A DNA stretch of 64,000 nt from Alphaproteobacteria bacterium (GTDB lineage: Bacteria; Pseudomonadota; Alphaproteobacteria; UBA2966): NCBI GenBank assembly GCA_965242505.1, contig OZ251449.1, positions 2,552,184 through 2,616,183 on the forward strand. The letters are read 5' to 3'. The position numbers and the translations under genes were made by a program. Each line of letters starts with the position of its first letter. Position 1 is the stretch's first letter. A model generated the notes under the pieces. The model searched no databases, was not told the origin of the DNA, and was given only the letters and a program-made list of their open reading frames with translations. Of this stretch, positions 10,535 to 63,300 are shown in pieces.

Positions 10535-10540
10535 AACACG

Positions 10541-15252: not shown

Positions 15253-15269
15253 GGAACGGGGTCGCGAAC

Positions 15270-15765: not shown

Positions 15766-15774
15766 TCCCTCCCG

Positions 15775-16302: not shown

Positions 16303-16304
16303 TG

Positions 16305-40031: not shown

Positions 40032-40124
40032 CCGCATCGTCCTTCCATTCCGCTCGAGGATCTCGGGCCGCGCAAGCTGCGGCCGCGGCGCTGCTCTTGC
40101 GCGAGCGGCGTTGCAGAGCCGCGG
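40032..40124 (+). repeat. degenerate tail half of a mosaic A module, cut off from its hairpin half by IS copy 1
   Basis: CCGCAT...CGAGGATC...GCGGCGTTGCAGAGCCGCGG, to be compared with the consensus ..GCGGCGTTGCGGGACCGCGG. Confidence 0.45.
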
Positions 40125-41457
40125 TGAGCAACCGGATAGATGGGTAACACTATAGACCGGATACATGGGTGACAGTGTTCCCGGTCTGTCCCGCTTCCGT
40201 GCGGCCCGGCCGGGCCGCACGGAAGCGGTGTAGCTTCTTCGACCTCCGATCGATGATCCCGAGGTCGACATCCGCGAAGCGGACGATCCAGTCGCCCCCG
40301 TCAGTCTCGGCCACGCCCACAGGCTCACCCCTCAGCGTCTCGCTGACGAAGACCAGATCGCCGCCCCACTTGATGGAGCCATCGGTGCGGACCCGGCGCA
40401 TCGCGTGCTCGGCATCGTACCAGGGCTCCTCCAGGCGCTCGGGATGACGCCGCGACGACGACCGGTAGAACGCCGCAGGCGGCCTCTGCCCCAAGGCCTC
40501 ATGCGGACGATGGACGTTGAAGTCCTGGCGGAAGCGGTCGAAGCGGGCCTGTTGCGCGTCCGCCGTCGCCGCCGGCGGCGTCGCGGTCTCGGCCTTCAAC
40601 GTCCGATGCATCCGCTCATGCCTCCCGTTCTGCTGCGGCTGACCCCGCGCAATCCGCTCCACCGCGATCCCGGCCTTGATCCACTCCACCGACAGACGCG
40701 ACAGACCCCCAGCCCCCGGACCGGCGAACGGCGCCCCGTTGTCCGAACGGATGGCCTCGGGAACCCCGTAGCGCCGGAACACCCGCCCCACCGCCGCCCC
40801 CACCGCAGCGGTCTGCGGCGGGACGATGACGCACGCCAACAGAAAGCGGCTGTAGGCGTCGGTGATCGTCAGCGGATCGCAGCGGACGCCGTCGCGGGTG
40901 CGAAACCACCCCTTGAAGTCGATGCGCCACACGTCGTTGGGAGCCGCCACAGGGCGGAACGGACGACACGGAGCCGCCATCCGACGGCGACGGCGACGGC
41001 GCGCCACCAGACCTTCCGCGCGCAGCAGGTCGCCCATCGTGCTGGCCGCCGGCCACGCCACCTCGGGGTGCTCACCCACCAACACCGCCCGCAGCTTGCG
41101 CGGACCCCAGTGCGGACGCGTGCGGCGCAAGGCGATGATCGCCTCGGCCACCGACGGCGCCATCGACCGACCATGGCGACGCGGCGCCCGCGACCGATCG
41201 ACCAGACCCTCCGGGCCGTCGCCGCGATACCGTCCAAGCCACTTGTACCCGGTCTTGCGGCTGATGCCGTAGTGCTCGCACAGCGCCGTCATCGACCACT
41301 CGCCACGCAGATAGTCGGCAACGAAAACCAGCTTCTCGTCCATCGGACAGGTCTCCTTCCAGGGCATCGGCCGCACCTCCCGCACCTCCCGACCAACCCT
41401 CTAACCTGTTACCCATGTATCCGGTCTGAACTGTTACCTTTCTATCCGGTCTGTACC
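40125..41457 (-). mobile_element. IS481-like insertion sequence, copy 1 (1333 bp)
   Basis: About 50-bp imperfect terminal inverted repeats (..CCGGATAGA.GGTAACA....AGACCGGATACATGGGT.ACAG). Single DDE transposase ORF. Flanks are CGG / CAG. Confidence 0.85.
40150..41385 (-). CDS. IS481-family DDE transposase (HTH + rve integrase core)
   Basis: 411 aa. N-terminal HTH (ALCEHYGISRKTGYKWL). VWRIDFKG..SDNGAPF..NGRHERMHRTLK (D, D, E region). Confidence 0.85.
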   Translation of the reverse strand: MREVRPMPWKETCPMDEKLVFVADYLRGEWSMTALCEHYGISRKTGYKWLGRYRGDGPEGLVDRSRAPRRHGRSMAPSVAEAIIALRRTRPHWGPRKLRAVLVGEHPEVAWPAASTMGDLLRAEGLVARRRRRRRMAAPCRPFRPVAAPNDVWRIDFKGWFRTRDGVRCDPLTITDAYSRFLLACVIVPPQTAAVGAAVGRVFRRYGVPEAIRSDNGAPFAGPGAGGLSRLSVEWIKAGIAVERIARGQPQQNGRHERMHRTLKAETATPPAATADAQQARFDRFRQDFNVHRPHEALGQRPPAAFYRSSSRRHPERLEEPWYDAEHAMRRVRTDGSIKWGGDLVFVSETLRGEPVGVAETDGGDWIVRFADVDLGIIDRRSKKLHRFRAARPGRTEAGQTGNTVTHVSGL

Positions 41458-41460
41458 CAG

Positions 41461-41662
41461 TCCACCCCCCTCCCGACCTCCCCCTGCCAGGGGGGAGGAG
41501 TATGGATGGTCAGGGGGGAAGAGCGTCGACGGCTCCCTCCCCCTCTCTTCTTCTCCCTCCCCCTTGCAGGGGGAGGGTCGGGGTGGGGGTCGCGCCTGGG
41601 GAGAGGAGCGCGAACGGACCCTGCGGCACCCCCGTCACTGGACGAGTCTTGCGGACGAGCAG
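41461..41662 (+). repeat. mosaic element copy R7 (A hairpin half + B module), right flank of IS copy 1
   Basis: TCCACCCCCCTCCCGACCTCCCCCTGCCAGGGGGGAGG ... CCCTTGCAGGGGGAGGGTCGGGGTGGGGGTCGCGCC ... GCGCGAACGGACCCTGCGG. Confidence 0.8.
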
Positions 41663-46882: not shown

Positions 46883-47716
46883 ATGACGACCAGACTGCGG
46901 GTGGCGGAATTCATCGAGGGCAGGCGGGCCCAGACGTTCATCACGGCGTTGATCGTTCTCAACGCCATTTCGCTCGGCCTGGAGACGTCGCCCGCGGCCA
47001 TGGGGAGGTTCGGCGGCGCCCTCGCCGCGTTCGACACGCTCGTGCTCGGCGTGTTCGCCGTCGAGATCGCCGCGAAGCTGTTCGGGCGGGGAGTCGGCTT
47101 CTTCCGGAACGGCTGGAACGTCTTCGATTTCCTGATCGTCGGCATCGCCCTGCTGCCGGCCTCCGGCCCCCTGGCGGTGCTGCGCGCGCTCCGCATTCTC
47201 CGCGTCCTGCGCCTGGTGTCGGCGTCGCCCCAGATGCGGGCGGTGATACAGGCGCTCATCACCGCCATCCCGGGCATGGTCTCGATCGTCGGGCTGATCA
47301 CCCTGATCTTCTACGTCTCGGCGGTGCTGGCGACCAATTTCTTCGGCGGAAGCTTCGACGAGTGGTTCGGCAGCATCGGCGCCTCGATGTTCAGCCTGTT
47401 CCAGATCATGACTCTGGAAAGCTGGTCGATGGGCATCGTGCGCCCGGTCATGGTCGAGTTTCCCCATGCCTGGGCCTTCTTCGTGCCGTTCATCCTGGTG
47501 ACGAGCTTCGCCGTCATCAACCTGTTCATCGGCGTCATCGTGGACGCCATGCAGACGCACCATGCTGAGGAAGCCCGGCGCATCGGGGCGCGCGTGGACG
47601 AGGATACGGAGTCCCTGCGCCGCGAGATGGCGGGACTGCGCGAGGAAATCGCCGGATTGCGGCGGTCGCTGCGGGCTGGCGAAGGCCCTGAACCGCGCAG
47701 CGCCGGCGGGGGATGA
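46883..47716 (+). CDS. bacterial voltage-gated sodium channel (NaChBac/BacNaV family)
   Basis: S4 segment with Arg every third residue (LRALRILRVLRLV). Pore filter FQIMTLESWSMG. C-terminal coiled coil. Confidence 0.8.
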   Translation: MTTRLRVAEFIEGRRAQTFITALIVLNAISLGLETSPAAMGRFGGALAAFDTLVLGVFAVEIAAKLFGRGVGFFRNGWNVFDFLIVGIALLPASGPLAVLRALRILRVLRLVSASPQMRAVIQALITAIPGMVSIVGLITLIFYVSAVLATNFFGGSFDEWFGSIGASMFSLFQIMTLESWSMGIVRPVMVEFPHAWAFFVPFILVTSFAVINLFIGVIVDAMQTHHAEEARRIGARVDEDTESLRREMAGLREEIAGLRRSLRAGEGPEPRSAGGG

Positions 47717-47723
47717 CCGCCGG

Positions 47724-49232
47724 ATGGGCGGCGAACGAGCGATCATCGTCAGGGGTGGGCGCGTGCTCGACGGCGCCCGGCCCGGGGCGGAACCCGGCGA
47801 CCTGTTGATCGAGGGCGATACGATCCGCGGCGTCGGCCCTCCCGGCCTCCCGGCGCCCGCGGACGCCGTCCTGCTCGACGCGCGCGGCAAGCTTCTGCAT
47901 CCAGGACTGATCAACGCCCACACCCACGGATACCACGCGGCGCACAAGGCCACGACGGATCGCTGGACCCTGGAGCGGTTCCTCACGGTCAGCCCCTGGA
48001 TCAACGCCGACCTGAGTCTCGAGGCGACCCGGCTGTTCACCAGGATCGCGGCGGTGGAGATGGCGCTCAAGGGCTGCACCGCCTGCTACGACCTGCCCCT
48101 GCCCTTGCCGCTGCCGACCCTCGACGCGCTGAACAGCGTGACGCGGGCCTACGCCGATGTCGGGATACGCGCCGTGGTCGCCCCGATGGTGGCCGACATC
48201 TCCATCTTCCACGCCGTGCCGGGCTTCCTGGACGCGCTGCCGCCGTCGTTCCGCCGGGATCTCGAAAATCGCGCGGCCGAGCCCGAAACGGCGATCCTGG
48301 CCCAATACCGGATGCTGTTCCGGGACTGGCGCGAAGAGGGCGGCCTCGCGCGTCTCGCCGTCTCGCCCGCCATCGCCCACCACTGCACGGCGCCCCTGTT
48401 CACGGGGCTCGCCGAACTGGCCCGGGAAAACGGCGCCGGACTTCACACCCATCTCGCGGAGTCCAGGATACAGGCCGTCTCCGGCCTCGAGCGGTTCGGC
48501 AAGACCGTGACAGCCTGGCTCGACGACCTCGGCGTGCTGGGCCCGAACTTCACGGCGGCGCACGGAGTCTGGCTCGACGACGACGACGTCCGGCGGCTCG
48601 CCGACCGCGGCGCCGCAGTCGCGCACAACCCGGGCAGCAACCTGCGGCTCGGGGTCGGGATCGCGGACGTTCGCAAGATGCTCGACGCGGGCCTCGACGT
48701 GGGCGTCGGCACCGATGGCGCACGCTCGTCGGACCATCAGAACATGTACGAGGCGACGCGCCTCGCCGCGCTCGTCTCGACGGCGCACGGCCGCGATCGC
48801 GAGGCCGGCCTTTCGGCCGCCGAGGCGTTCCACGCGGCGACCGTCGGCGGCGCGCGGACGCTGGGCCTCGACAAGATCGGACGCCTCGCGCCGGGATACA
48901 AGGCGGATATCGTCTTCCTGGACCTCGGGCGGATCAACTGGATACCCCTGAACGACCCGTTGCTCCAGATCGTCCACGTCGAGGACGGCGGCAGCGTGGA
49001 CACCGTCATGGTGGGCGGGAAGGTGGTGGTGGAGAACGGCAGGCCCGCGACCGTCGACATGGCGGCGCTCGCCTCCGAGGCCGACGCGCTGCGCCCCCGG
49101 TTCGAGGAGCTGATGTCCCGGAACCCGGAGCTGCTCGGGCAGGCGCAATCGATCGGCGGAGAGTTCTGCGGCGCGCTGGCTGCGGAGCCCTATCACATCG
49201 AGCGGCGCATCCCCGCGGCGGGGCATCGGTGA
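47724..49232 (+). CDS. metal-dependent amidohydrolase (cytosine/guanine deaminase-chlorohydrolase superfamily)
   Basis: LHPGLINAHTH metal-binding HxH. ..HLAES.., ..GTDGA.. downstream motifs. Confidence 0.75.
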   Translation: MGGERAIIVRGGRVLDGARPGAEPGDLLIEGDTIRGVGPPGLPAPADAVLLDARGKLLHPGLINAHTHGYHAAHKATTDRWTLERFLTVSPWINADLSLEATRLFTRIAAVEMALKGCTACYDLPLPLPLPTLDALNSVTRAYADVGIRAVVAPMVADISIFHAVPGFLDALPPSFRRDLENRAAEPETAILAQYRMLFRDWREEGGLARLAVSPAIAHHCTAPLFTGLAELARENGAGLHTHLAESRIQAVSGLERFGKTVTAWLDDLGVLGPNFTAAHGVWLDDDDVRRLADRGAAVAHNPGSNLRLGVGIADVRKMLDAGLDVGVGTDGARSSDHQNMYEATRLAALVSTAHGRDREAGLSAAEAFHAATVGGARTLGLDKIGRLAPGYKADIVFLDLGRINWIPLNDPLLQIVHVEDGGSVDTVMVGGKVVVENGRPATVDMAALASEADALRPRFEELMSRNPELLGQAQSIGGEFCGALAAEPYHIERRIPAAGHR

Positions 49233-49290
49233 ACCGCCATCCTCACGGCGGAGCGAGCGGCCGGCCGCCGCGCGCGTCGATGGCCGGCGC

Positions 49291-49302
49291 GGGAAATGCG
49301 GG
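49291..49302 (-). repeat. terminal fragment of a mosaic element (GGGAAATGCGGG) abutting a TAG stop
   Basis: Matches the GAGAAATGCGGG terminus of the other copies. Only about 12 nt, so it could be chance. Confidence 0.3.
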
Positions 49303-51750
49303 CTACGCCAGGATCCGTTCGCGTCCGGGGTCGTGGAAGGGGGCGAGCGACGCCCGCGCGGGAAATCGCTCGCCGGCGATCTCGATCTCGTAACTCCCGG
49401 CCTCGATCCATTCCCGCGTGACGCCCGCTTCGCGGCAGACGTAGCCCATGCCGACGGCGGCGCCGACCGTGTGGCCGAACATGCCGGACGTGAGATATCC
49501 GACGATCTCGCCGTCGCGGCGGATCGGCTCGTAGTGGTGGAGCAGCGGCTCCGGGTCCTCCAGGGCGAACAGGACGAGACGCTTGCCGACGCCCGTGTCC
49601 CTCTGGCGCAGCGCGGCGTCGCGGCCGATGAACCCGGCGTTCTTCCCGTACGCCACGGCGAAGCCGAGGCCGGCTTCCTGCGCCGTGTCCTCGTCGCTGA
49701 TGTCGTGTCCCCAGTGGCGATAGCCCTTCTCCAGGCGGAGGGAGTTCACCGCATGGAACCCGACGGGGGCCAGCCCGACGTCCCGACCGCGCGCCATGAG
49801 CTCGTCGCAGACGCCGGCGGCGAACTCGGCCGGCACGTAGAGCTCCCAGCCCAGCTCCCCGACGTAGGTGATGCGGGTCGCGCGCGCCGTCGCGTAGCCG
49901 ACGTCGATCTCGCGGGAGGTCGCGAAGGGGAAGGCGTCGTTGCCGAGGTCCGCGCTCGTGACCCGCGACAGCAGGTCCCGGGCCTTCGGCCCCATGACGC
50001 CGAGAACGGCGTAGGCGGACGTCACGTCCGTGACCGCGGCTCGCGACCCGTCGGGGATGTGGCGGTTGAGCCAGTCGACGTCCCGCGTCTGACTCTCCAC
50101 CCCGGTCACGACGAGGAAGCCGTCCTCGGCGAGACGGGTGACGGTGACGTCGGCCTCGATGCCGCCGCGGTCGTTGAGCCATTGCGTATAGACGACGCGG
50201 CCCACGGGAACCGCGACGTCGTTGGCGCAGATGCGGTTGAGCGCCGCCTCCGCGTCGGCGCCGGACACCAGGATCTTGCCGAAACTGCTCTGGTCGATCA
50301 GCCCGACGCGCTCACGCACCGCCCGATGCTCGTCCGCCGAATACTCGAACCAGTTCTGACGCCGCTAGGAATACTCGTACCGGGGCTCGACCCCTTCCGG
50401 CGCATACCAGTTGGGACGCTCCCAGCCGGCGGCCTCCCCGAAGCAGGCCCGGCGCGCCGCGAGCCGGTCGTGGAGGGGCGACTTGCGGATGCCGCGCGCC
50501 GTCACGAACTGCCGGAAGGGCCAGCGCATGTCGTAGAGGAGACCCAGCCCCTCGACGACGCGCTCCTCGAGATAGCGGGCATTCCCCTAGAAAGGCTGCA
50601 TCCGGCGCGGGTCGACTTCCCACAGGTCCATGCCCGGATGACCGTTGACGATCCACTCGGCGAGCACCTTGCCCGCGCCGCCCGACGATCCGACGCCGAT
50701 CGAGTTGAACCCGCACGCGAGGTAGAAGTTCCGAAGCTCGGGCGCCTCGCCGAGGAGGTAGCGGTCATCCGGCGTGAAGCTCTCCGGTCCGCAGAAGAAC
50801 GTCTGCACGCCCGTCTCCGCGAGGACGGGAATGCGATGCAGGGCGCTTTCCATGATGGGCTCGAAGTGGTCCCAGTCCTCGGGCAGCTGATCGAACTCGA
50901 AGTCTTCGGGGATGCCGCCCATGCCCCAGGGCTTGGCCTCCTTCTCGAAGGCGCCCACGAGCAGCTTGCCCGCGTCCTCCTTGACGTAGAGGCCCGCGTT
51001 CTGCTCGCGCAGCGACGGGGTGCCGGGGCTCAGCCCCGCAATCGGCTCGGTCACGACGTAGAAGTGCTCGGCGGCGTGGAGAGGCGTGTTGACCCCCGCC
51101 AGCCGGCCGATCTCGCGGCCCCACATGCCGCCGCAGTTGACGACGAACTCCGCGCGGATGTCGCCGTCGTCCGTCGCCACGCCCGTGACCCGGCCGCCGC
51201 TCCGGCGTATGGCCGTGACCCTGGTGTTCTCGAAGATCCGCGCGCCGCGCATACGCGCGCCCTTGGCGTAGGCCAACGTCGTGTCGACGGGATTCGTCTG
51301 TCCCTCGCTCGGGATGAAGACCCCGCCGATCAGGTCGTCCGCGTTCAACAGCGGCCACAGCTCCAGCGCCTCTCCCGGCGACAGCACCCGGACCTCGAGC
51401 CCGAAGCAGCGGCCCATGGAGGCGTTGCGCTTGAGTTCGATGAACCGTTCCTCGTCGGCCGTCACGAGCAACGCTCCGTTCTGCTTGTAGCCGGTGGCCT
51501 GACCGGTCTCCTCCTCCAGGGACAGCAGAACCTCGGTCGTGTACTGGGCGAGACGCGTCATGTTGAACGTGGCGCGGAGCTGTCCGATCAGGCCCGCGGC
51601 ATGCCACGTCGTCCCGCTGGTCAGCGACTTTCGTTCCAGCAGGACGACGTCGGTCCAGCCCGCCCGGGTCAGGTGATAGGCGACGCTGCAACCGATGACG
51701 CCGCCGCCGATGATGACGACCCGGGCCTGCTCCGGTAGTTTGTCGGACAT
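49303..51750 (-). pseudogene. dimethylglycine/sarcosine dehydrogenase-family gene (FAD DAO domain + GcvT aminomethyltransferase domain) interrupted by two in-frame TAG codons
   Basis: One continuous frame. [17 protein letters not shown] at the N-terminus and GLIDQSSFGKILVSG..GcvT-like at the C-terminus. TAG at 50587-50589 and at 50365-50367. Confidence 0.8.
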
Positions 51751-51838
51751 GCGCGCCTCATGCGTGCCGGGTGGTCATGGATACGACAGGAGGTCCCCGG
51801 TCGGCAACGGGGCGAGCGATTCCGCCCGACCGCAAGGC

Positions 51839-54800
51839 TCATCCGGCGGCGCGAAGCGGCCAGCCGCCGCGCGCATCGATGGCTTGGTCGATGCGCGCCA
51901 TGGCGCAGGGCGTTTCGGCGAGGGCGGCGCAGATTCGGCGATAGCGCGCGATGTCTTCGAACGAGAGGAACCGCCCCTTGCGGTCCTTCAGCCATTTCTC
52001 CGCCGGGCGGTAGCCGCCGATGGCGAAGGCCCAGACGTCCGGCGACACGCCCTCGAAGTACTGGCCGCCGTTGATCCATACCCGGCCCGGGACGCCGCCG
52101 CTCGGCGGGGCGTAGCGGACCTTGTCGATGCGGTTGTCGCCCGCGTCCGGAAAGGCGGGCGCGTCTTCGCCCTCGGCCTCCATCAGGTGCAGGGCGGCGA
52201 GGCGCCGGCCCAGGCCGACCAGTTCGGCGAACAGCGCGCGATCGTCCGTGAGCGGCGCGCGCGGGAAATCCGACTTCAGGAAATCCGCGTACCGGCGGCG
52301 GTATTCCGGGCTGTGGAGCACCGCATAGATGTAGTGAAACACGTCCTCCGGCCCGAAGACGGATTCGAGGTCGCCCGCGCCGTCGGGGATGAAGTCGAGA
52401 CCGAGCGCCGCGCGCATCGATTCGACGAAGCCTGGGTCGAGATTGGCCGCGCGCATCTTTCCGAAGCAATCCGTCGCATAGGTGTAGAGGGGAAAGAGGG
52501 AATTCGAGTCGTAGGCGTCCAGGGACTTGTTACCAGTGACGGTTTTTGCCGCGAATGCGTTCCATTGTCCCCGACCTTGCCGCGTCGTGACGATGCCGAC
52601 GTTCGGCCCTCTCAACATATGGCGCATGACGTTCGGCCGCGGCATACAGATGAATCCGCGGCTACGGCCGGTGTAACAGGTGAAGCGCGTATCGAACGGG
52701 CGATACAGTATGGGTACCGGACTCCACTGCCCTCCGGGGATTCCGCGGACGTCCCGTTGCGCGTCCTCGACCTTCCAATCGCGAACGTCCCTGCCCAACC
52801 GATAAAACGCTCTCGCGTCTTCGGGGTCCCGAGAGGCGAAGTCCTCCACGACGCGACGCATGTCATCCGCCGTCCACTGGATCGCCAGCCTGTCGCGCGC
52901 CGTCACGATCCCGATCGAATTGACGGGAAAGACGTCGGTAAGAGCCGGGTACGTTTCGTACTCCTCGCGCAACGCCTCGTCGCGCGGCGCGAACAGATAG
53001 AGCGGCGGCATGGGCGCGAGCTCCGTCCACGACGTCGTCCCCACGTCGTTGGCGGAGAGCCATCCGTACTTGCCGCCGTCCGGCCCGGCCTCGCGTTCGC
53101 CCCACAGATCGGCATGGAACACCCGCGCCGATCCGTCATCGCTGTCCGCCCTCTTGACGAACAGGCCGATGGCAACGCCCTTCTGGATGTCGAACACGTT
53201 CTCGTTCCTGCCGCCGTCCGGCGCGCGCTCCCTCTTCATGGCGTCGCCGTGCAGGTCGAGCAGGTAGATCTCGTCGAAAGCTTCCATCAGACTCTTCCGC
53301 ATCCCGCGAAAGGTCGGGTTGTCGAGATAACCGTGATTGGTGACGAAGCCGAGCACGCCTTCGCCGGTGCTCTCGATCCGCCACTGCGCGAAGCGGATGA
53401 ACTTGACGTAATCGTCGTACAGCCACTTCAGGTTCTTTTCGCAGAGCGGTTCGCCGTCCACCTCGAAATAGCTGCCGGTCCTGGCCGCGCCGTCCCTGCC
53501 TTGCAGCAGAGCCTTGATCCACGCGCCCTCGTTGGCGGATTCGCCGCGATAGGGCGGGTTGCCGATCACGACCATCACCGGCTTTTCGCGCTTCACCGCA
53601 TCCGCATCCGCAGCCTCACGAGCGACCTCATGGGCGAACAGCGCGCCGGCGGTCCCCTCGTGCGCCTCTTCAAGCGCGTTGGTGAGAAAGACGCCGAGCC
53701 GCTGGCCGTCCGGCATCCTGAAACCCGCGTCCGTCCCGCCGATCTCGAGAGCCAGCTTCAGATGGCAGATGGCGTAGGGCGCCATCAGCAACTCGAACCC
53801 GAACAGGCGCGGCAACAGGTGGTCCCGCACGTAGTCCGGCCACGCGCCGCCGAGGCCCTTGCCCTCGATCGTCTCGCGGACCGTGGCGACGGCCTCGCGC
53901 AGGAACGTGCCCGTGCCCGCAGCCGGGTCGAGGATCAGCACCCGCGGACTCGCCGTCGGCTGCCCTTCGGGGTCGCGCTCGTCGATCGTCGCGGTGTCGG
54001 CAAGCCCGTCCGCCAAGCCGAACCTCTCGCGGAGCAGGCGATCCACGCTCGCCACGATGTAGGAGACCACAGGCTCGGGCGTGTAGTAGACGCCGCGCGC
54101 CGCACGCCGTTTCGGGTCGTAGGCGGCCAGAAAGTCCTCGTAGAAATGCACCACCGGGTCTTCGCGGCGGGTGCGGCGACCGAAATCGGCGAGGATCTCC
54201 GCCATGTCGGCCCGGTCGAGCAGGCGCGCCAGATCGTCCACGATCCAGGCCAGGCGCGAATCGACGCCGGGGCCGGCGATATGGCCGAAGACCTCACGCA
54301 GGAACGGCGTCGTCTCGGCGAAAACGGCGGACCGGCGTGTGAACGGCCCGCTCTTCGGATCGTGCAGGCAGCGGGCCGCGAACAGGCCGTAGGCGGCGGT
54401 CTGCGCTTGCAGGTCGGCGAACTCATCGGCCGGCAACTGCAGGAACAACACGTCGCGATAGGCGGCCAGCAAGTCACTCAGGGGTCCCGACTGGCCTTCC
54501 CACTCCAAAATGCGTTCGACGCCATCGCGCAACAGCCGCGTCTTGGCCGCCATGCGCTCCGCGAGTTCACGGGACTGGCCGATGGACGGCGTATCGGCGG
54601 CGAGGAACGCTTGGAACAGCCCGGTAACCTGGCCCAAACCCTCCCGGTTCGCCACGATTTTGCCGCGGCGGTCGAACCGGCCCAGTCGCGCGGTCTCGCG
54701 CAACTCGCCGTCGGCGTACCAGCGAAACTCGAGATAGTCCGTCAGGATCAGATTGGGCAGAGCGGTCCGGTAGCGCTTCAGTTGTTCGTCGCGCTCGTCT

Positions 54801-55057
54801 TGGTTCAGGTCGGCTCCGACGTCCTTGCATTCGATATGGCCGACCGGAACGCCGCGCCGCTCGACGATGAAGTCGGGCGCGCCGCACGCGACGCGCGACG
54901 GCTCGTTGAGGGCGTGAACGCCGGCGCCGCCCAACTCCTGCGCGAGCGTCCGAAGCGCCGGACGGTAGCTGTGCTCGGTCGCCTGCCCGGTGGCGCGCGT
55001 TCGCTCCAACTCCCGGCGGTAATCGCGAAGCGCGCCCGCCGCGTCCCGGTCCGTCAT
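51839..55057 (-). CDS. single-chain restriction-modification enzyme, MmeI-like architecture (type IIL/IIG): PD-ExK nuclease + N6-adenine MTase + specificity region; copy 1
   Basis: GAPDFIVERRGVPVGHIECKD. YYTPEPVV, LDPAAGTGTFL (motif I), VIGNPPY (motif IV). 1072 aa from MTDRDAAGAL. The 1337-aa version in the track is an upstream shadow extension. Confidence 0.7.
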   Translation of the reverse strand: MTDRDAAGALRDYRRELERTRATGQATEHSYRPALRTLAQELGGAGVHALNEPSRVACGAPDFIVERRGVPVGHIECKDVGADLNQDERDEQLKRYRTALPNLILTDYLEFRWYADGELRETARLGRFDRRGKIVANREGLGQVTGLFQAFLAADTPSIGQSRELAERMAAKTRLLRDGVERILEWEGQSGPLSDLLAAYRDVLFLQLPADEFADLQAQTAAYGLFAARCLHDPKSGPFTRRSAVFAETTPFLREVFGHIAGPGVDSRLAWIVDDLARLLDRADMAEILADFGRRTRREDPVVHFYEDFLAAYDPKRRAARGVYYTPEPVVSYIVASVDRLLRERFGLADGLADTATIDERDPEGQPTASPRVLILDPAAGTGTFLREAVATVRETIEGKGLGGAWPDYVRDHLLPRLFGFELLMAPYAICHLKLALEIGGTDAGFRMPDGQRLGVFLTNALEEAHEGTAGALFAHEVAREAADADAVKREKPVMVVIGNPPYRGESANEGAWIKALLQGRDGAARTGSYFEVDGEPLCEKNLKWLYDDYVKFIRFAQWRIESTGEGVLGFVTNHGYLDNPTFRGMRKSLMEAFDEIYLLDLHGDAMKRERAPDGGRNENVFDIQKGVAIGLFVKRADSDDGSARVFHADLWGEREAGPDGGKYGWLSANDVGTTSWTELAPMPPLYLFAPRDEALREEYETYPALTDVFPVNSIGIVTARDRLAIQWTADDMRRVVEDFASRDPEDARAFYRLGRDVRDWKVEDAQRDVRGIPGGQWSPVPILYRPFDTRFTCYTGRSRGFICMPRPNVMRHMLRGPNVGIVTTRQGRGQWNAFAAKTVTGNKSLDAYDSNSLFPLYTYATDCFGKMRAANLDPGFVESMRAALGLDFIPDGAGDLESVFGPEDVFHYIYAVLHSPEYRRRYADFLKSDFPRAPLTDDRALFAELVGLGRRLAALHLMEAEGEDAPAFPDAGDNRIDKVRYAPPSGGVPGRVWINGGQYFEGVSPDVWAFAIGGYRPAEKWLKDRKGRFLSFEDIARYRRICAALAETPCAMARIDQAIDARGGWPLRAAG

Positions 55058-55221
55058 TTGGGCGTCTCTCAGGTCGCGCCGCGGGAGGCTCGCGCCCACC
55101 GCGGTTCGGCGGGGCGGGCCTCGACGGCCGCCATCGGTTTCGCGTTCGCTCCGTTCATCCTGCATGTTGTCGCCGAGTTCGCCCCGACGTGCAAGGTCGG
55201 CATTCCGCCCGACCGCAAGGC

Positions 55222-58200
55222 TCATCCGGCGGCGCGAAGCGGCCAGCCGCCGCGCGCGTCGATGGCCTGGTCGATGCGCGCCATGATCCGCGGTGTTTCG
55301 GCGAGGGCGGCGCAGATTCGGCGATAGCGCGCGACGTCGTCGAACGAGAGGAGACGCCCCTTGCGGTCCTTCAGCCATTTCTCCGCCGGGCGGTAGCCGC
55401 CGACGGCGAAGGCCCAGACGTCCGGCGACACGCCCTCGAAGTACTGGCCGCCGTTGATCCATACCCGGCCCGGGACGCCGCCGCTCGGCGGGGCGTAGCG
55501 GACCTTGTCGACGCGGTTGTCGCCCGCGCCCGGAAAGGCGGGCGCGTCTTCGCCCTCGGCCTCCATCAGGTGCAAGGCGGCGAGGCGACGGCCCAGGCCG
55601 ACCAGTTCGGCGAACAGCGCGCGATCGCCCGTGAGCGGCGCGCGCGGGAAATCCGACTTCAGGAAATCCGCGTAACGGCGGCGGTATTCCGGGCTGTGGA
55701 GCACCGCATAGACGTAGTGGAACACGTCCTCCGGCCCGAAGACGGCTTCGAGGTCGCCCGCGCCGTCGGGGATGAAGTCGAGACCGAGCGCCGCGCGCAT
55801 CGATTCGACGAAGCCAGGGTCGAGATTCGCTGCGCGCGTCTTTCCGAAGCAATCCGTCGCATAGGTGTAGAGGGGGAAGAGGTAATTCACCTCCTTGAGT
55901 GAGACCGTGTGATGTTGGATGAGATGGCTTGAGGCGAACACGTGTTCCCAGCCGTCGGCAATCTCCGTCGACCTTGTCGTCGAGAGACCCAGGTTCGGCC
56001 CCGCCAGCATGTGGCGCATGACGTTCGGCCGCGGCATACAGATGAATCCGCGGCTACGGCCGGTGTAACAGGTGAAGCGCGTATCGAACGGGCGATACAG
56101 TATGGGTACTGGATTCCACTGCCCTCCGGGGATTCCGCGGACGTCCCGCTGCGCGTCCTCGACCTTCCAGTCGCGAGCATCCCTGCCCAACCGATAAAAC
56201 GCTCTCGCATCTTCGGGGTCGCGGGAGGCGAAGTCCTCCACGACGCGACGCATGTCGTCCGCCGTCCACTGGATCGCCAGCTTGTCGCGCGCCGTAACCA
56301 CGCCGACGGAGTTGACTGGAAAAATTTCCGGGAGCTTCCAGTTGTCCTCGTACTCCGCCTTCAACGCCTCGTCGCGCGGCGCGAACAGATAGAGCGGCGG
56401 CATGGGCGCGAGTTCCGTCCACGACGTCGTCTCCACGTCGTTGGCGGAGAGCCATCCGTACTTGCCGCCGTCCGGCCCGGCCTCGCGTTCGCCCCACAGG
56501 TCGGCATGGAACACCCTCGCCGGCTTCCCGTCGGCGCCTCCGCGCTTGACGAACAGGCCGATGACGACGCCCTGCTGAATGTCGAACACGTTCTCGTCCC
56601 TGCCGCCGTCCGGCGCGCGCTCCTTCCTCTTCGCGTTGCCGTGCAGATCAAGCAGGTGGATCTCGTCGAAAGCTTCCATCAGGCTTTGCCGCATCCCGCG
56701 AAAGGTCGGGTTGTCGAGATAGCCGTGATTGGTGACGAAGCCGAGCACGCCTTCGCCGGTGCTCTCGATCCGCCACTGCGCGAAGCGGATGAACTTGACG
56801 TAATCGTCGTTCAGCCACTTCGGGTTCCTTTCACCGAGCGGTTCGCCGTCCACCTCGAAATAGCCGCTGCTCCCGTCCGCGTCGTTTCGGCCCCGCAACA
56901 GGTCGGCGATCCATGCGCCCTTGTTGGCGGAATGGCCGGAATAGGGCGGGTTGCCGAGCACGACCATCACCGGCTTCTCCCGCTTGACCGCATCCGCGCC
57001 AGCGGCCTCCCGGGCGATCTCGTGGGCGAACAGCGCACCGGCGGTCCCCTCGTGCGCCTCTTCCAGCGCGTTGGTGAGAAAGACGCCGAGCCGCTGGCCG
57101 TCCGGCATCCTGAAACCTGCGTCCGTCCCGCCGATCTCGAGAGCCAGCTTCAGATGGCAGATGGCGTAGGGCGCCATCAGCAACTCGAACCCGAACAGGC
57201 GCGGCAACAGGTGGTCCCGCACGTAGTCCGGCCATGCGCCGCCGAGGCCCTTGCCCTCGATCGTCGCGCGGACCGTGGCAACGGTCTCGCGCAGGAACGT
57301 GCCCGTGCCCGCCGCCGGGTCGAGGATCAGCACCCGCGGACTCGCCTTCGATTGCCCCTCGGGATCGCGCCCGGCGATCGTTGCGGTGTCGGCAAGCCCG
57401 TCCCCCAGACCGAAACTTGCGCGCAAGATGCGGTCCACGCTGCGCACGATGTAGGAGACCACGGGCTCGGGCGTGTAGTAGACGCCGCGTACCTCGCGCA
57501 GTTTCGGGTCGTAGGCGGCCAGAAAGTCCTCGTAGAAATGCACCACCGGGTCTTCGCGGCGGGTGCGGCGACCGAAATCGGCGAGAATCTCCGCCATGTC
57601 GGCCCGGTCGAGCAGGCGCGCCAGATCGTCCACGATCCAGGCCAAGCGCGAATCGACGCCGGGGCCGGCGATATGGCCGAAGACCTCGCGCAGGAACGGC
57701 GTCGTCTCGGCGAAAACGGCGGACCGGCGCGTGAACGGCCCATTCTTCGGGTCGTGCAGGCAGCGGGCCGCGAACAGGCCGTAGGCGGCGGTCTGCGCTT
57801 GCAGGTCGGCGAACTGATCGGCCGACAACCGCGCGATCAACACGTCGCGATAGGCGGCCAGCAAGTCGCGCAGGGGTCCCGATCGGCCTTCCCCCCGCAG
57901 GATGCGTTCGACGCCATCGCGCAACAGCCGCGCCTTGGCCGCCATGCGCTCCGCGAGTTCACGGGACTGGCCGATGGACGGCGCATCGGCGGTGAAGAAC
58001 GCCTGGAACAGCCCGGTAACCTGGCCCAAACCCTCCCGGTTCACCGCGACCCTGCCGCGACGGTCGAACCGGCCCAGTCGCGCGGTCTCGCGCAATTCGC
58101 CGTCGGCGTACCAGCGAAACCTGAGATAGTCCGTCAGGATCAGATTGGGCAGGGCGGCCCGGTAGCGTTTCAGTTGTTTGCTGCACTCGACACGGTTCAG

Positions 58201-58449
58201 GTCGGTTCCGACGTCCTTGCACTCGATATGGCCGACCGGAACGCCGCGCCGCTCGACGATGAAGTCGGGCGCGCCGCACGCGACATGCGAAGGCTCGTTG
58301 AGGGCGTGAACGCCGGCGCCGCCCAACTCCTGCGCGAGCGTCTGAAGCGCCGGACGGTAGCTGTGCTCGGTCGCCTGCCCGGTGGCGCGCGTCCGTTCCA
58401 ACTCCCGGCGGTAATCGCGAAGCGCGCCCGCCGCGTCCCGATCCGTCAT
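55222..58449 (-). CDS. single-chain restriction-modification enzyme, MmeI-like architecture; copy 2 (paralogue with divergent cassettes)
   Basis: Same motifs (VLGNPPY). 1075 aa. Roughly 90 percent aa identity to copy 1 by eye, with the differences clustered in patches. Confidence 0.7.
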   Translation of the reverse strand: MTDRDAAGALRDYRRELERTRATGQATEHSYRPALQTLAQELGGAGVHALNEPSHVACGAPDFIVERRGVPVGHIECKDVGTDLNRVECSKQLKRYRAALPNLILTDYLRFRWYADGELRETARLGRFDRRGRVAVNREGLGQVTGLFQAFFTADAPSIGQSRELAERMAAKARLLRDGVERILRGEGRSGPLRDLLAAYRDVLIARLSADQFADLQAQTAAYGLFAARCLHDPKNGPFTRRSAVFAETTPFLREVFGHIAGPGVDSRLAWIVDDLARLLDRADMAEILADFGRRTRREDPVVHFYEDFLAAYDPKLREVRGVYYTPEPVVSYIVRSVDRILRASFGLGDGLADTATIAGRDPEGQSKASPRVLILDPAAGTGTFLRETVATVRATIEGKGLGGAWPDYVRDHLLPRLFGFELLMAPYAICHLKLALEIGGTDAGFRMPDGQRLGVFLTNALEEAHEGTAGALFAHEIAREAAGADAVKREKPVMVVLGNPPYSGHSANKGAWIADLLRGRNDADGSSGYFEVDGEPLGERNPKWLNDDYVKFIRFAQWRIESTGEGVLGFVTNHGYLDNPTFRGMRQSLMEAFDEIHLLDLHGNAKRKERAPDGGRDENVFDIQQGVVIGLFVKRGGADGKPARVFHADLWGEREAGPDGGKYGWLSANDVETTSWTELAPMPPLYLFAPRDEALKAEYEDNWKLPEIFPVNSVGVVTARDKLAIQWTADDMRRVVEDFASRDPEDARAFYRLGRDARDWKVEDAQRDVRGIPGGQWNPVPILYRPFDTRFTCYTGRSRGFICMPRPNVMRHMLAGPNLGLSTTRSTEIADGWEHVFASSHLIQHHTVSLKEVNYLFPLYTYATDCFGKTRAANLDPGFVESMRAALGLDFIPDGAGDLEAVFGPEDVFHYVYAVLHSPEYRRRYADFLKSDFPRAPLTGDRALFAELVGLGRRLAALHLMEAEGEDAPAFPGAGDNRVDKVRYAPPSGGVPGRVWINGGQYFEGVSPDVWAFAVGGYRPAEKWLKDRKGRLLSFDDVARYRRICAALAETPRIMARIDQAIDARGGWPLRAAG

Positions 58450-58668
58450 CGGGCGTCTCTCAGGTCGCGCCGCGGGAGGCTCGCGCCCGCCGCGGTTCGG
58501 CGGGGCGGGCCTCGACGGCCGCCATCGGTTTCGTATCCGGTACGTTCATCCTTCATGTTGTCGCCGAGTTCGCCCCGACATGCAAGGTCGGCGGCATGGG
58601 GGGTCGAACCGGTCGGGGCGGCGTGATAGCGTCCCGGCCATGAAGGGGCTCTCGATCGACGCGGCGCG

Positions 58669-60048
58669 ATGACCGGCCGGCCCAACTCCGCCGCCGCCAG
58701 AGACGCGGCGGCGGTGCTGCATCCGTTCACCGACCTCAAGGCCCACGAGGAAGACGGACCGTTCATCATCGACCACGGCAACGGCGTGCGCGTCACCGAC
58801 GAGAGCGGCAAGACCTATATCGAGGGCATGTCCGGACTGTGGTGCGCGTCGCTCGGTTTCAGCGAGCGCCGCTTGGTCGACGCGGCGGCGCGCCAGATGG
58901 CGGAACTGCCCTACAACCAGACGTTCCTCGGACGGAGCCACGAAACGGCGATCAATCTCGCCGAGCGCCTTCTCTCCCTGTCGCCGGTTCCCATGTCCAG
59001 GATCCTGTTCGCCAGCTCGGGCTCCGAGGCCAACGACACCGCGGTCAAGCTGGTCTGGTACTACAACAACGCCGAGGGGCGGCCCGAAAGGCGCAAGATC
59101 ATCGGGCGGCGGAACGGCTATCACGGGACGACGGTCGCCACGACGAGCCTGAGCGGCATCCCCGACCTGCACCGGGGCTTCAATTTGCCGATCGCCGACG
59201 TCCTGCACACCGACTGTCCGCATCACTACCGCTTCGCGCGCCCCGGCGAGACCGAGGAGGAGTTCGCGGACCGCCTCGCCGCCAATCTGGAGAGGCTGAT
59301 CCTCGACGAGGGCCCGGAGACCGTGGCCGCCTTCATCGCCGAGCCGGTGATGGGGGTCGGCGGCGTCATCGTGCCGCCGCGGACCTATTTCGAGAGGATG
59401 CAGGCCGTGCTGCGCGAGTACGGCGTGCTGTTCATCGTCGACGAGGTCATCTGCGGCTTCGGACGGACGGGGAACATGTTCGGCAGCGAGACCTTCGGCC
59501 TCCGGCCCGACCTCATGTGCTGCGCCAAGGCGCTGTCGTCCGCCTACCTGCCGATCTCGGCGACCTTCATCTCCGAGCCGATCTACCGAGCGATGGTGGC
59601 GGAGAGCGAGAAGATCGGCGTGTTCGGCCACGGATACACCTACTCCGGCCATCCGGTCGCGGCGGCCGTGGCCCTCGAGGCGCTCGACATCTACGAGGAG
59701 CGCGACGTCGTGGGCCACGTGCGGGCCGTCGCTCCGCGCTTCCAGGAGGTATTCCGGTCGCTCGCCGACCGCCCGCTGGTGGGGGAGGCCCGAGGCGTGG
59801 GGCTGATGGCCGGCGTCGAACTGGTCGCCGACAAGACCGCCAAGCGGCCCTTCGACCCGGCGCTCAAGGTCGGCGCCTACCTGGCGTCGCGGGCCCGCGA
59901 ACACGGGTTGATCGTGCGGGCGCTCGGCGACACCGTGGTCTGCGCTCCGCCGTTGATCATCGCCGAAGACGAGATCGACGAGCTCGGCGCGCGCTTCCAC
60001 CGCGCGCTGGCGGACACGGAGGCGCGGTTCCTCGGGGATACGGCGTAG
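58669..60048 (+). CDS. class III (omega) aminotransferase, PLP-dependent
   Basis: 459 aa. SGSEANDTAVK, DEVICGFGRTG, CCAKALSS (PLP Lys). Confidence 0.85.
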   Translation: MTGRPNSAAARDAAAVLHPFTDLKAHEEDGPFIIDHGNGVRVTDESGKTYIEGMSGLWCASLGFSERRLVDAAARQMAELPYNQTFLGRSHETAINLAERLLSLSPVPMSRILFASSGSEANDTAVKLVWYYNNAEGRPERRKIIGRRNGYHGTTVATTSLSGIPDLHRGFNLPIADVLHTDCPHHYRFARPGETEEEFADRLAANLERLILDEGPETVAAFIAEPVMGVGGVIVPPRTYFERMQAVLREYGVLFIVDEVICGFGRTGNMFGSETFGLRPDLMCCAKALSSAYLPISATFISEPIYRAMVAESEKIGVFGHGYTYSGHPVAAAVALEALDIYEERDVVGHVRAVAPRFQEVFRSLADRPLVGEARGVGLMAGVELVADKTAKRPFDPALKVGAYLASRAREHGLIVRALGDTVVCAPPLIIAEDEIDELGARFHRALADTEARFLGDTA

Positions 60049-60063: not shown

Positions 60064-61459
60064 ATGACCGGCGATCTCGCGTCGATGTCGGCGGTGGAGC
60101 TGGTCTCCCGCTACCGCCGCAAGACGTTGTCGCCGGTCGAGGCGGTCGAAGCGGCGCTTGAGCGGATCGACCGGTGCGACGGCGCCGTCAACGCCTTCCG
60201 CCATCTCGATCCCGATTCGGCGCTCGCGTCGGCGCGCGAATCGGAGGCGCGCTGGCGGGCGGGAACTCCCGCCGGCCTCGTCGACGGCGTGCCCACGACG
60301 ATCAAGGACGCGCTTCTGACGAAGGGCTGGCCGACCCGGCGCGGCTCGCGCACCGGTTCGGCCGATGGTCCCTGGGACGAGGACGGCGCGCCTGCGGGCC
60401 CACGGCGCGGTGCTGATCGGCAAGACGACGACCCCGGAGTTCGGCTGGAAGGGCGTCACCGACAGCCCGCTCACCGGCGTCACGCGGAACCCGTGGAACC
60501 TGGAACGGACGCCGGGCGGTTCCAGCGGCGGCGCCTCGGCGGCCTGCGCGCTCGGGATGGGGGCGCTGCACGTGGGCACCGACGGCGCCGGCTCGATCCG
60601 CATTCCGGCGGCCTTCACCGGCATCTATGGCCTCAAGCCCACGTTCGGGCGCGTGCCCATCTATCCGATGAACATGCCGGGCGCGATCATCCATCACGGA
60701 CCGATGACGCGAACCGTGGGCGACGCGGCGCTGATGCTCAACGTCATCGCCGAGCCCGACCCTCGGGACTGGACGGCCCTTCCTTACGATGCCCGCGACT
60801 GGCGGACGGGGATCGAGGATGGCGTCAGGGGCCTCCGCATCGCCTATTCGCGCGATTTCGGTTACGCGGACGTGGACCCCGAGGTCGCCGGCCTCGTCGA
60901 GAAGGCGGTGGACGTATTCGCCGATCTGGGCGCCGTCGTCGAAGAGGCCGACCCCGGGTTCGAGGACCCGCGCGAGGCTTTCGGCGCATATTATTTCCTG
61001 CGCTTCCGGCCCCTCGTCGATGCGATGGACGACGAACAGCGCGCGCTCATGGACCCGGGGCTGGTGCGATCGGTCGAGGAATACCGGGACAGGGGCGTCG
61101 CCGAGTCGCTGGCCGCCGATGCGGCGCGTCTGATGCTGGGGCGGCGCATGAACCTGTTTCACCAGACCTATGACCTGCTGGTCTCGCCGCAGATGCCGCT
61201 CACCGCCTTCGAGGCGGGGGCCGAGGCGCCGGCCGGCCGCGGCATGAAGAACTGGATGGACTGGAGTCCGTTCACCTATCCATTCAACTTCACGCAAGCG
61301 CCGGCGGCGAGCGCGCCCTGCGGGATCACCGGCGAGGGCCTGCCGGCGGCGATGCAGATCGCCGGGCCGCGGTATCGGGAGGACCTAGTGCTGCGCGCAA
61401 GCCGCGCCTACGAGTCGGCCCGCCCGTTCGTCATGCCGAAACCGCCGGAGGACGGCTGA
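60064..61459 (+). pseudogene. amidase-signature family amidase, frameshifted near 60383-60395
   Basis: N-terminal part (..GVPTTIKDAL..PWDED) is in one frame. RLRAHGAVLIGKTTTPEFG..GGSSGGASAACA..GTDGAGSIRIPAAF is in another frame. Confidence 0.75.
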
Positions 61460-61520: not shown

Positions 61521-61672
61521 CTTCCGACGGGAGCGCCGCAAGGTCCGTCCGCGCCCCTTCCCCCTTGGCGCGACCCCCACCCCGGCCCTCCCCCTGCAAG
61601 GGGGAGGGGGGCGGAGGGACCGTCGACGCTCCTCCCCCCTGACAGGGGGGAGGTCGGGAGGGGGGACCGCGG
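61521..61672 (-). repeat. mosaic element copy R8, B module + A hairpin half (left flank of IS copy 2)
   Basis: GGCGCGACCCCCACCCCGGCCCTCCCCCTGCAAGGGGGAGGG ... CTCCTCCCCCCTGACAGGGGGGAGGTCGGGAGGGGGGACCGCGG. Confidence 0.8.
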
Positions 61673-63005
61673 GGTACAGACCGGATAGAAAGGTAACAGT
61701 TCAGACCGGATACATGGGTAACAGGTTAGAGGGTTGGTCGGGAGGTGCGGGAGGTGCGGCCGATGCCTTGGAAGGAGACCTGTCCGATGGACGAGAAGCT
61801 GGTTTTCGTTGCCGACTATCTGCGTGGCGAGTGGTCGATGACGGCGCTGTGCGAGCACTACGGCATCAGCCGCAAGACCGGGTACAAGTGGCTTGATCGG
61901 TATCGCGGCGACGGCCCGGAGGGTCTGGTCGAGCGGTCGCGGGCGCCGCGTCGCCATGGTCGGTCGATGGCGCCGTCGGTGGCCGAGGCGATCATCGCCT
62001 TGCGCCGCGCGCGTCCGCACTGGGGTCCGCGCAAGCTGCGGGCGGTGTTGGTGAGTCAGCGCCCCGAGGTGGCGTGGCCGGCGGCCAGCACGATGGGCGA
62101 CCTGCTGCGGGCGGAGGGTCTGGTGGCGCGCCGTCGCCGGCGCCGTCGGATGGCGGCTCCGTGTCGTCCGTTCCGCCCTGTGGCGGCTCCCAACGACGTG
62201 TGGTGTATCGACTTCAAGGGGTGGTTTCGCACCCGCGACGGCGTCCGCTGCGATCCGCTGACGATCACCGACGCCTACAGCCGCTTTCTGTTGGCGTGCG
62301 TCATCGTCCCGCTGCAGACCGCAGCGGTGGGGGCGGCGGTGGGGCGGGTGTTCCGGCGCTACGGGGTTCCCGAAGCCATCCGTTCGGACAACGGGGCGCC
62401 GTTCGCCGGTCCGGGGGCTGGGGGTCTGTCGCGTCTGTCGGTGGAATGGATCAAGGCCGGGATCGCGGTGGAGCGGATTGCGCGGGGTCAGCCGCAGCAG
62501 AACGGGAGGCACGAGCGGATGCATCGGACGTTGAAGGCCGAGACCGCGACGCCGCCGGCGGCGACGGCGGACGCGCAACAGGCCCGCTTCGACCGCTTCC
62601 GCCAGGACTTCAACGCCCATCGTCCGCATGAGGCCTTGGGGCAGAGGCCGCCTGCGGCGTTCTACCGGTCGTCGGAGCGGCGTCATCCCGAGCGCCTGGA
62701 GGAGCCCTGGTACGATGCCGAGCACGCGATGCGCCGGGTCCGCACCGATGGCTCCATCAAGTGGGGCGGCGACCTGGTCTTCATCAGCGAGACGCTGAGG
62801 GGCGAGCCTGTGGGCGTGGCCGAGACCGACGGGGGCGACTGGATCGTCCGCTTCGCGGATATCGACCTCGGGATCATCGATCGGAGGTCGAAGAAGCTAC
62901 ACCGCTTCCGTGCGGCCCGGCCGGGCCGCACGGAAGCGGGACAGACCGGGAACACTGTTACCCATGTATCCGGTCTATAGTGTTACCCATCTATCCGGTT
63001 GCTCA
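61673..63005 (+). mobile_element. IS481-like insertion sequence, copy 2 (1333 bp), inverted relative to copy 1
   Basis: Same termini as copy 1. Flanked by CGG on both sides. Confidence 0.85.
61745..62980 (+). CDS. IS481-family DDE transposase
   Basis: 411 aa. Differs from the copy 1 protein at about a dozen positions (e.g. GEHPEV vs SQRPEV). Confidence 0.85.
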   Translation: MREVRPMPWKETCPMDEKLVFVADYLRGEWSMTALCEHYGISRKTGYKWLDRYRGDGPEGLVERSRAPRRHGRSMAPSVAEAIIALRRARPHWGPRKLRAVLVSQRPEVAWPAASTMGDLLRAEGLVARRRRRRRMAAPCRPFRPVAAPNDVWCIDFKGWFRTRDGVRCDPLTITDAYSRFLLACVIVPLQTAAVGAAVGRVFRRYGVPEAIRSDNGAPFAGPGAGGLSRLSVEWIKAGIAVERIARGQPQQNGRHERMHRTLKAETATPPAATADAQQARFDRFRQDFNAHRPHEALGQRPPAAFYRSSERRHPERLEEPWYDAEHAMRRVRTDGSIKWGGDLVFISETLRGEPVGVAETDGGDWIVRFADIDLGIIDRRSKKLHRFRAARPGRTEAGQTGNTVTHVSGL

Positions 63006-63058
63006 CGGTCCCGCAACGCCGCGCAATCCTCGATCCCTGCCGGCATCGGAAATGCGGG
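63006..63058 (-). repeat. mosaic element copy R8, A tail half (right flank of IS copy 2)
   Basis: CGGTCCCGCAACGCCGCGCAATCCTCGATCCCTGCCGGCATCGGAAATGCGGG. Confidence 0.8.
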
Positions 63059-63174
63059 TCGACATGGCGAATCCCGAATTACGCAGGTGTTTCGGGATTC
63101 CTTCACACGCGCGAAAGCGGGAAGCCAGGAACCCTGATGAGAACTCCCCCTCCCGGCCGCTGGCGCGCGGCGCC

Positions 63175-63300
63175 TCAGCCGTGCCGGACCGAAGGTCCGG
63201 AGGTGGTCTCCTGGGTGGAAAAACCGAGATAGTCGAGGGCGATGTCCGCGCCCACGGAGATCACGGCAATAGCCAGAAATGCGATAAGCATGGCTTTCAT
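63175..63300 (-). CDS. possible 41-aa membrane peptide coupled to the upstream cytochrome c gene
   Basis: My own translation: MKAMLIAFLAIAVISVGADIALDYLGFSTQETTSGPSVRHG. ATG overlaps the upstream TGA (ATGA). Confidence 0.3.
   Translation of the reverse strand: MKAMLIAFLAIAVISVGADIALDYLGFSTQETTSGPSVRHG

Follow-up and report, generated by a model that had tools for sequence, protein, structure and literature searches.

A tandem pair of DrdV-like restriction-modification genes

We analysed a 64,000-nucleotide (nt) stretch of an alphaproteobacterial genome (assembly GCA_965242505.1, contig OZ251449.1, positions 2,552,184 to 2,616,183 of the forward strand; hereafter the window, with position 1 as its first letter) and found two adjacent genes, A and B, each encoding a single-chain restriction-modification (RM) enzyme. 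The best explanation, to which we assign a probability of about 0.75, is that these are two intact tandem Type IIL genes of the DrdV kind that were duplicated in situ, underwent cassette recombination and provide two specificities. The enzyme kind is a known one and the locus represents a fairly ordinary yet useful and instructive case of cassette-type diversification. A first-pass annotation, made from the letters alone, had described a tandem of stand-alone enzymes uniting nuclease, methyltransferase and recognition functions in one chain, both copies being intact, and the analysis supports this description.

Using repeat searches and global alignment, we located two head-to-tail direct repeat units at 51819-55201 (3383 base pairs, bp) and 55202-58592 (3391 bp). 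They share 91.2% nt identity over 3401 aligned columns (BLASTN), a likeness far above chance given the 3.4-kb length. Each unit carries one open reading frame (ORF) and its upstream leader, which bears out the tandem duplication first proposed. The encoded proteins are 87.5% identical, the two leaders (55058-55201 and 58450-58592) 94%, and the leader is also conserved upstream of single-copy orthologues. At the junction between the units, which reads ...GGCGGAAT/GCCGACCTTGCA..., the trailer at +20 nt is fused to the leader at -143 nt. The microhomology of only a few bases to both parental sequences found there fits an illegitimate or unequal exchange. No helicase, specificity (S) or controller (C) gene lies next to the pair, in agreement with the first-pass annotation; the adjacent genes are metabolic. 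The units and genes are as follows (aa, amino acids):

51819-55201, minus strand: repeat unit 1, made up of a 20 bp trailer, gene A and a 143-144 bp leader
51839-55057, minus strand: gene A, 1072 aa, first residues MTDRDAAG (conserved start)
55058-55201, minus strand: gene A leader, the duplicated upstream part of unit 1
55202-58592, minus strand: repeat unit 2, made up of a 20 bp trailer, gene B and a 143 bp leader
55222-58449, minus strand: gene B, 1075 aa
58450-58592, minus strand: gene B leader, the duplicated upstream part of unit 2

A 1-nt insertion directly before the gene A ATG brings a reading frame of the leader into register with the gene, leading gene callers to lengthen copy A to 1128 aa (P0002). 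This extension is conserved neither in copy B nor in orthologues. A leader ORF overlapping the gene B start by ATGA might have encoded a coupled leader peptide, but we discarded this idea, as indels shift its frame in gene A and in two orthologues from related genomes (L003 and L004). A promoter and terminator scan of the units returned a single terminator-like site, located outside them, and no Rfam match was found over 49-59 kb. The units have a GC content of 67.6% compared with ca. 70% in the flanks, a gap too small to argue for foreign origin by composition, which was dropped.

The enzymes share the domain architecture of DrdV

Both copies have the same domain order: a PD-(D/E)xK nuclease, a helical connector, a gamma-class N6-adenine methyltransferase and a C-terminal Type_ISP_C domain serving as target recognition domain (TRD). 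The PADLOC model REase_MTase_IIG (PDLC03631) matches the two proteins with 925 and 891 bits over aa 18-1030, the Pfam family Type_ISP_C (PF18135) matches aa 708-1056 with E values of 1e-88 and 4e-85 and Pfam N6_Mtase is also matched in the methyltransferase region. NCBIfam offers no usable family for either protein. The top PDB match by sequence is DrdV (7lo5) with an E value of 8e-34, or 5e-57 when a family profile is used, followed by LlaBIII and LlaGI. The proteins consequently group with RM enzymes, a point on which the first-pass annotation had staked its proposal. The domains map as follows:

54563-55057, minus strand: gene A PD-(D/E)xK domain, with D62, E76 and K78 encoded at 54824-54874
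57955-58449, minus strand: gene B PD-(D/E)xK domain (aa 1-165), with D62, E76 and K78 encoded at 58216-58266
53549-53929, minus strand: gene A methyltransferase core, from motif I (53903-53929) to NPPY (53549-53560)
56941-57321, minus strand: gene B methyltransferase core, from motif I DPAAGTGTF (57295-57321) to motif IV NPPY (56941-56952)
51935-52933, minus strand: gene A TRD, Type_ISP_C aa 709-1041 (Pfam)
55282-56328, minus strand: gene B TRD, Type_ISP_C aa 708-1056 (Pfam)

The motifs quoted in the first-pass annotation (APDFIVERRGVPVGHIECKD, QLKRYR...LILTDYL.FRWY, LDPAAGTGTFL and NPPY) are present in both copies. D62, E76 and K78 are invariant among 39 homologues, and HSDR_N gives a sub-threshold match over the nuclease motif. 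When the N-terminal 165 aa are modelled alone with AlphaFold2 (AF2), a confident fold is obtained (pLDDT 88, pTM 0.85) whose best Foldseek match is the DrdV endonuclease domain (E 4e-6, TM 0.65-0.77, rmsd 3.2-4.1 Å), with weaker fold matches to the HsdR and BpuSI nucleases. DPAAGTGTF is found at aa 377-385 and NPPY at aa 500-503 of both copies, in a region that aligns to the DrdV methyltransferase. The full-length AF2 model, used for collinearity only, is collinear with all of DrdV 7lo5 (Foldseek E 5e-24), Type ISP enzymes being the next matches and MmeI reaching only 1e-3.

DrdV from Deinococcus wulumuqiensis (PDB 7lo5/7lvv) is a Type IIL enzyme of 1029 aa and shows the same four-part order in a single chain of ca. 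1030-1075 aa. It differs in that overall identity is only ca. 20%, the N-terminal 300 aa being undetectable by sequence, and the window encodes two tandem paralogues. LlaGI and LlaBIII (Type ISP; PDB 5ffj, 4xqk) have a homologous methyltransferase and TRD (Type_ISP_C; PDB E 1e-30 to 1e-49) but also possess a RecA-like ATPase/translocase that is absent from the window enzymes. Alignments to LlaGI and LlaBIII begin after this ATPase, at residues 677 and 841, respectively. The stretch between nuclease and methyltransferase is helical and comprises only ca. 170 residues, and no helicase or ATPase Pfam domain is present in either protein. As Type ISP enzymes have a RecA-like SF2 ATPase/translocase domain between nuclease and methyltransferase, we rejected this class, and collision-based Type ISP cleavage cannot apply to A and B since they lack an ATPase/translocase.

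MmeI (Type IIL; PDB 5hr4) represents the same enzyme class and general domain order but a different sequence family. The MmeI_Mtase model scores 15.8-16.7 bits, below its cut-off of 27, the remaining MmeI domain models give no match and the fold similarity is weak, so that the label 'MmeI-like' given in the first-pass annotation has to be replaced: the best match by both sequence and fold is DrdV. A BREX PglX/BrxX methyltransferase was likewise rejected. A nuclease domain is present, PADLOC reports no PglX match, the neighbours are not brx genes and BrxX is a distant fold match (E 1e-5). The enzymes are DrdV-like Type IIL/IIG single-chain RM proteins, belonging neither to the MmeI family nor to true Type ISP. 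This amends what automated labels would suggest, the NCBI annotation of full-length plasmid homologues being 'type ISP restriction/modification enzyme'. The family is very large, with more than 8000 matches, and barely characterised biochemically.

A and B carry different recognition cassettes in a shared backbone

The 296 nt differences between A and B are strongly clustered, with a variance-to-mean ratio of 7.4 in 60-nt windows compared with 0.9 in shuffles, and identical runs extend up to 116 nt. A per-codon map resolves four divergent tracts with sharp edges (aa 316-352, 503-547, 600-645 and 696-717) and a fifth, the most pronounced, at aa 813-860, each flanked by tens of identical codons. 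For synonymous divergence (dS), the A/B values are 0.47 in the tracts, exceeding 1 in the TRD core, and 0.107 in the backbone. Since dS too is raised within sharp bounds, the tracts have separate ancestry and are not merely faster-evolving residues.

To place the tracts, we compared A and B block by block with the four orthologues from related genomes (L003, L004, L085 and L086). In the backbone, A and B are mutually nearest relatives. In several tracts, A or B is nearer to another strain's allele than to its partner, as at aa 811-840, where A is 93.6-94.9% identical to L003 and L086 and 71.8% to B. Over the TRD core, identity of A is 93% to L003 and 69% to B. The two TRD cores share ca. 50-70% nt identity plus an indel and are essentially non-homologous. 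Judged by these alignments, A/B divergence is a mosaic of bounded tracts common to other alleles and not simple drift after duplication. The variable elements of the two genes are:

52487-52621, minus strand: gene A hypervariable TRD core, aa 813-857, beta cassette, ca. 90% nt identical to the L003 orthologue
55870-56013, minus strand: gene B hypervariable TRD core, aa 813-860, alpha cassette, where DrdV D803/K807 align to S850/V854
53417-53551, minus strand: gene A variable post-NPPY loop, aa 503-547 (alignment)
56809-56943, minus strand: gene B variable post-NPPY loop, aa 503-547, aligning with the DrdV loop that holds K486/K488

Base-specific contacts in DrdV are made by K486/K488 of the methyltransferase and D803/K807 of the TRD (bioRxiv 10.1101/2021.01.06.425610). 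By alignment, K486/K488 correspond to positions 543/545, in a loop that reads CEKNLKWLY in A and GERNPKWLN in B, while D803/K807 correspond to S850/V854 of B and fall within the hypervariable core. Differences between A and B are concentrated on family-variable columns (entropy 1.83 vs 0.95, p 4e-23). The allele comparison thus narrows the likely specificity determinants to a core of ca. 48 residues and the post-NPPY loop.

The TRD cores of 120 homologues can be sorted into about eight discrete cassette types, which are combined with varied backbones:

Cassette type alpha: 49 members, including copy B
Cassette type gamma: 26 members
Cassette type delta: 16 members
Cassette type beta: 11 members, including copy A
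Cassette type epsilon: 9 members
Three smaller cassette types: 2-4 members each

The TRD of gene B is chimeric, with a beta-type N-terminal part (aa 740-812) identical to that of A joined to an alpha core. This arrangement suggests an ancestor of beta type, the second copy of which acquired its alpha core through short-patch recombination. No close donor of the B alpha core was found among 87 loci, the best nt identities being 80% (L085) and 77% (L005).

With two cassettes, two sequences would be recognised and restriction broadened, and the cell most likely carries two restriction specificities. The same proposal in the first-pass annotation gains support as likely from the discrete TRD cassettes in which A and B differ and from their alignment with DrdV base contacts. 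That A and B instead read the same sequence, the duplication being a dosage amplification and the variable tracts having no effect on specificity, is the least probable account of all. The cores are essentially non-homologous, they represent separate discrete cassette classes, which are reassorted between backbones, and they align with residues that contact bases in DrdV.

In the MmeI family, one chain cuts, methylates and recognises DNA, and changes in the TRD alter specificity (PMC4833311, PMC2731913). Work on RM genes of Helicobacter pylori has described discrete homology groups of TRDs and 'domain movement', in which alleles exchange these domains by recombination in conserved flanks and the specificity of an otherwise orthologous locus is changed (PMC3983042, PMC3077401). 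That work mainly concerned Type I S and Type III mod genes, whereas the exchanged segment in the window is a core of ca. 145 nt inside a single-chain Type IIL enzyme. Also unlike the H. pylori case, the window has two alleles fixed side by side through tandem duplication. Given the long identical runs, the pair represents a substrate for unequal crossing-over and gene conversion, making its earlier description as a recombination substrate plausible.

Both copies look functional

To assess intactness, we used 347 alignment columns that are at least 95% conserved across 118 homologues. Gene A departs from these at five columns and gene B at one, with a family median of three. The ratio of nonsynonymous to synonymous divergence (dN/dS) between the backbones of A and B is 0.28. 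Based on the few departures, this ratio and the retention of both leaders, A and B both look functional. Both are presumably expressed and enzymatically active.

Several observations weigh against the reading of two intact enzymes with two specificities. The combination of a beta N-terminal part and an alpha core seen in gene B occurs in no other family member examined, and its TRD may be impaired. In gene A, nearly invariant positions are substituted (S504R, N605D, D618N and Q626K). No sigma-70-like promoter was found by the scan in either leader. The DrdV contacts were mapped through sequence alignments at ca. 20% identity and the full-length AF2 model has low confidence (pLDDT 57). Finally, the pattern of A/B divergence is compatible with either an old duplication followed by gene conversion or a recent duplication with imported tracts.

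The first two of these points (four or five near-invariant positions being affected in A), together with the presence of pseudogenes among the neighbouring genes, would also fit a real duplication in which one copy works as an RM enzyme and the other is decaying, acts as a methyltransferase only or serves as a spare cassette donor. We consider this unlikely, although it is the strongest of the competing explanations: neither ORF is shortened or lacks any catalytic motif, both lie within the normal deviation range of the family, the backbone has a dN/dS of 0.28 and the conserved leader has been kept by both.

The RM gene is resident at its locus and was probably duplicated in place

Four related genomes from different samples (L003, L004, L085 and L086) each contain one orthologous copy at the same locus. 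It is flanked by amidase, aminotransferase and M20 peptidase genes on one side and by amidohydrolase, DMGDH, ion channel and SDR genes on the other. The core alleles differ, L003 and L086 carrying beta, L004 gamma and L085 alpha. As the four relatives hold one copy with alternative cores, the RM gene is a resident specificity locus that is polymorphic. Past the right-hand insertion sequence (IS) of the window, gene order again matches that of L003. The first-pass annotation had taken the pair for a recent insertion bracketed by IS elements. This is not borne out, and a composite transposon was rejected, the site being occupied by an orthologue in all four relatives and L003 synteny continuing past the right-hand IS.

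Over a longer timescale the family has clearly spread horizontally, as judged from homologues with 64-74% identity in Alphaproteobacteria, Chloroflexota, Acidobacteriota, Latescibacterota, Entotheonella and others. This distribution suggests extensive horizontal spread of the DrdV-like family. Several record names among loci L005-L084 point to sponge-associated lineages (Entotheonella, Poriferisodalis).

Comparable pairs occur in other genomes

Close pairs of family members were identified in three further assemblies (percentages are identities between the two copies):

L001, P0084/P0119: genuine tandem, accompanied by 227 nt left from the 3' end of a third copy; 90% overall, ca. 40% within aa 801-900
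L087, P0127/P0128: copies separated by 6 kb; 100% across aa 251-800, falling to 30% within aa 801-850
L002, P0080/P0103: copies separated by 1.8 kb; 94-100% as far as aa 500, falling to 22-58% within aa 501-550 and 701-900

In the L002 pair, the post-NPPY block (aa 501-550) differs as well as the TRD. No second copy within 8 kb was found in 80 species-representative genomes, indicating that close pairs are uncommon, yet their origin is a repeated one.

The surroundings of these pairs vary. The L001 pair (9587-16606), an independent tandem, adjoins priA, with the 227-nt remnant of the third copy upstream and GmrSD-like and PIN genes downstream. The L087 (1-15035) and L002 (4966-13171) pairs lie near def-fmt, in surroundings that resemble defence islands. 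The former is accompanied by a RES-Xre toxin-antitoxin pair, a SIR2_2 gene and IS fragments, while a DUF5677 gene and a truncated peptide deformylase gene lie between the copies of the latter.

The recurrence of pairs also bears on the integrity of the assembly. The source is apparently a metagenome-assembled chromosome of 3.67 Mb and related strains hold alternative alleles at the same locus, so an assembler might have stitched the alpha and beta strain alleles of a single-copy gene head to tail. Such an artefact is highly improbable. The junction is novel and offers no similarity for an overlap assembler to follow, the backbones of A and B are nearer to each other than to any strain allele, the flanks contain further genuine rearrangements, a vestigial RM 3' end among them, and comparable pairs are present in three other assemblies from different samples.

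A model for a two-specificity locus

In the favoured explanation of two working Type IIL enzymes, a unit of leader, ORF and 20 bp trailer would have been duplicated in place at a chromosomal site that is single-copy in relatives. Short bounded tracts would have been gained or retained via homologous recombination with other alleles, with the backbone staying near-identical. By analogy with DrdV, A and B would each bind a separate asymmetric site, at which a single adenine would be methylated on one of the strands. Cleavage of unmodified DNA, at a fixed distance, would follow once several DNA-bound protomers have joined through their nuclease and connector domains. The cell would restrict two classes of sites. 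The locus illustrates how a second specificity is added to a resident RM gene that keeps its first.

DrdV-type cleavage requires several DNA-bound protomers to assemble via their nuclease and connector domains. The paired copies of four lineages (the window, L001, L002 and L087) have near-identical nuclease, connector and methyltransferase parts and differ mainly in and around the TRD. Because these assembly domains are kept near-identical, the paralogues could conceivably form hetero-oligomers in which both kinds of sites count jointly to license cleavage, and the tandem array might act as an invertase-free cassette store that is reshuffled by gene conversion. This extension of the DrdV analogy is speculative and we regard it as doubtful. 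If true, the pair would form a two-specificity cooperative restriction complex instead of two independent systems. Near-isogenic natural pairs, with differences confined almost entirely to the TRD core, also provide material for mapping the recognition code and engineering Type IIL specificity, the clearest being P0127/P0128 with complete identity over 550 aa and 30% in the core.

Neighbouring genes and other features of the window

The DMGDH-like gene (49303-51750, minus strand; DAO-FAO_M-GCV_T) is 93.6% identical to its orthologue. The first-pass annotation had called it broken. Two in-frame TAG codons agree with this, but the gene is full length. The codons are found at 388 (50587-50589; CAC in relatives) and 462 (50365-50367; TGG in relatives), each creating a CTAG, and the gene is likely a pseudogene. 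The DMGDH and amidohydrolase genes (47683-51807) are swapped in order relative to relatives with no inversion. The following remnant lies in this region:

49233-49285, minus strand: 53-nt vestige that copies the 3' end of the RM gene, adjoining the amidohydrolase stop codon and marking the ancestral junction

Together, the swapped gene order and the RM vestige point to an earlier duplication-and-deletion or template-switch rearrangement at the locus.

On the other side of the pair, a class-III aminotransferase gene is located at 58669-60048. The M20 peptidase gene that lies between the RM gene and the aminotransferase gene in the four relatives is deleted in the window, leaving a 10-codon ORF (58640-58672, plus strand) that overlaps the aminotransferase start. 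In the amidase gene (60064-61459, plus strand), a frameshift near 60374-60390 gives two frames in place of the single 468-aa ORF of relatives.

Two IS481-family copies are present in inverted orientation at 40105-41511 (minus strand) and 61618-63022 (plus strand) and are 96.9% identical. The right-hand copy displaces most of an EamA transporter gene, of which the last 21 codons are left at 63167-63229. A dispersed repeat of ca. 50 nt (CGGTCCCGCAACGCCGCGCAATCCTCGATCCCTGCCGG...) occurs at 8088-8140, 16347-16386, 20558-20609 and 63006-63058; the copies are 88-97% identical and one abuts an IS end.

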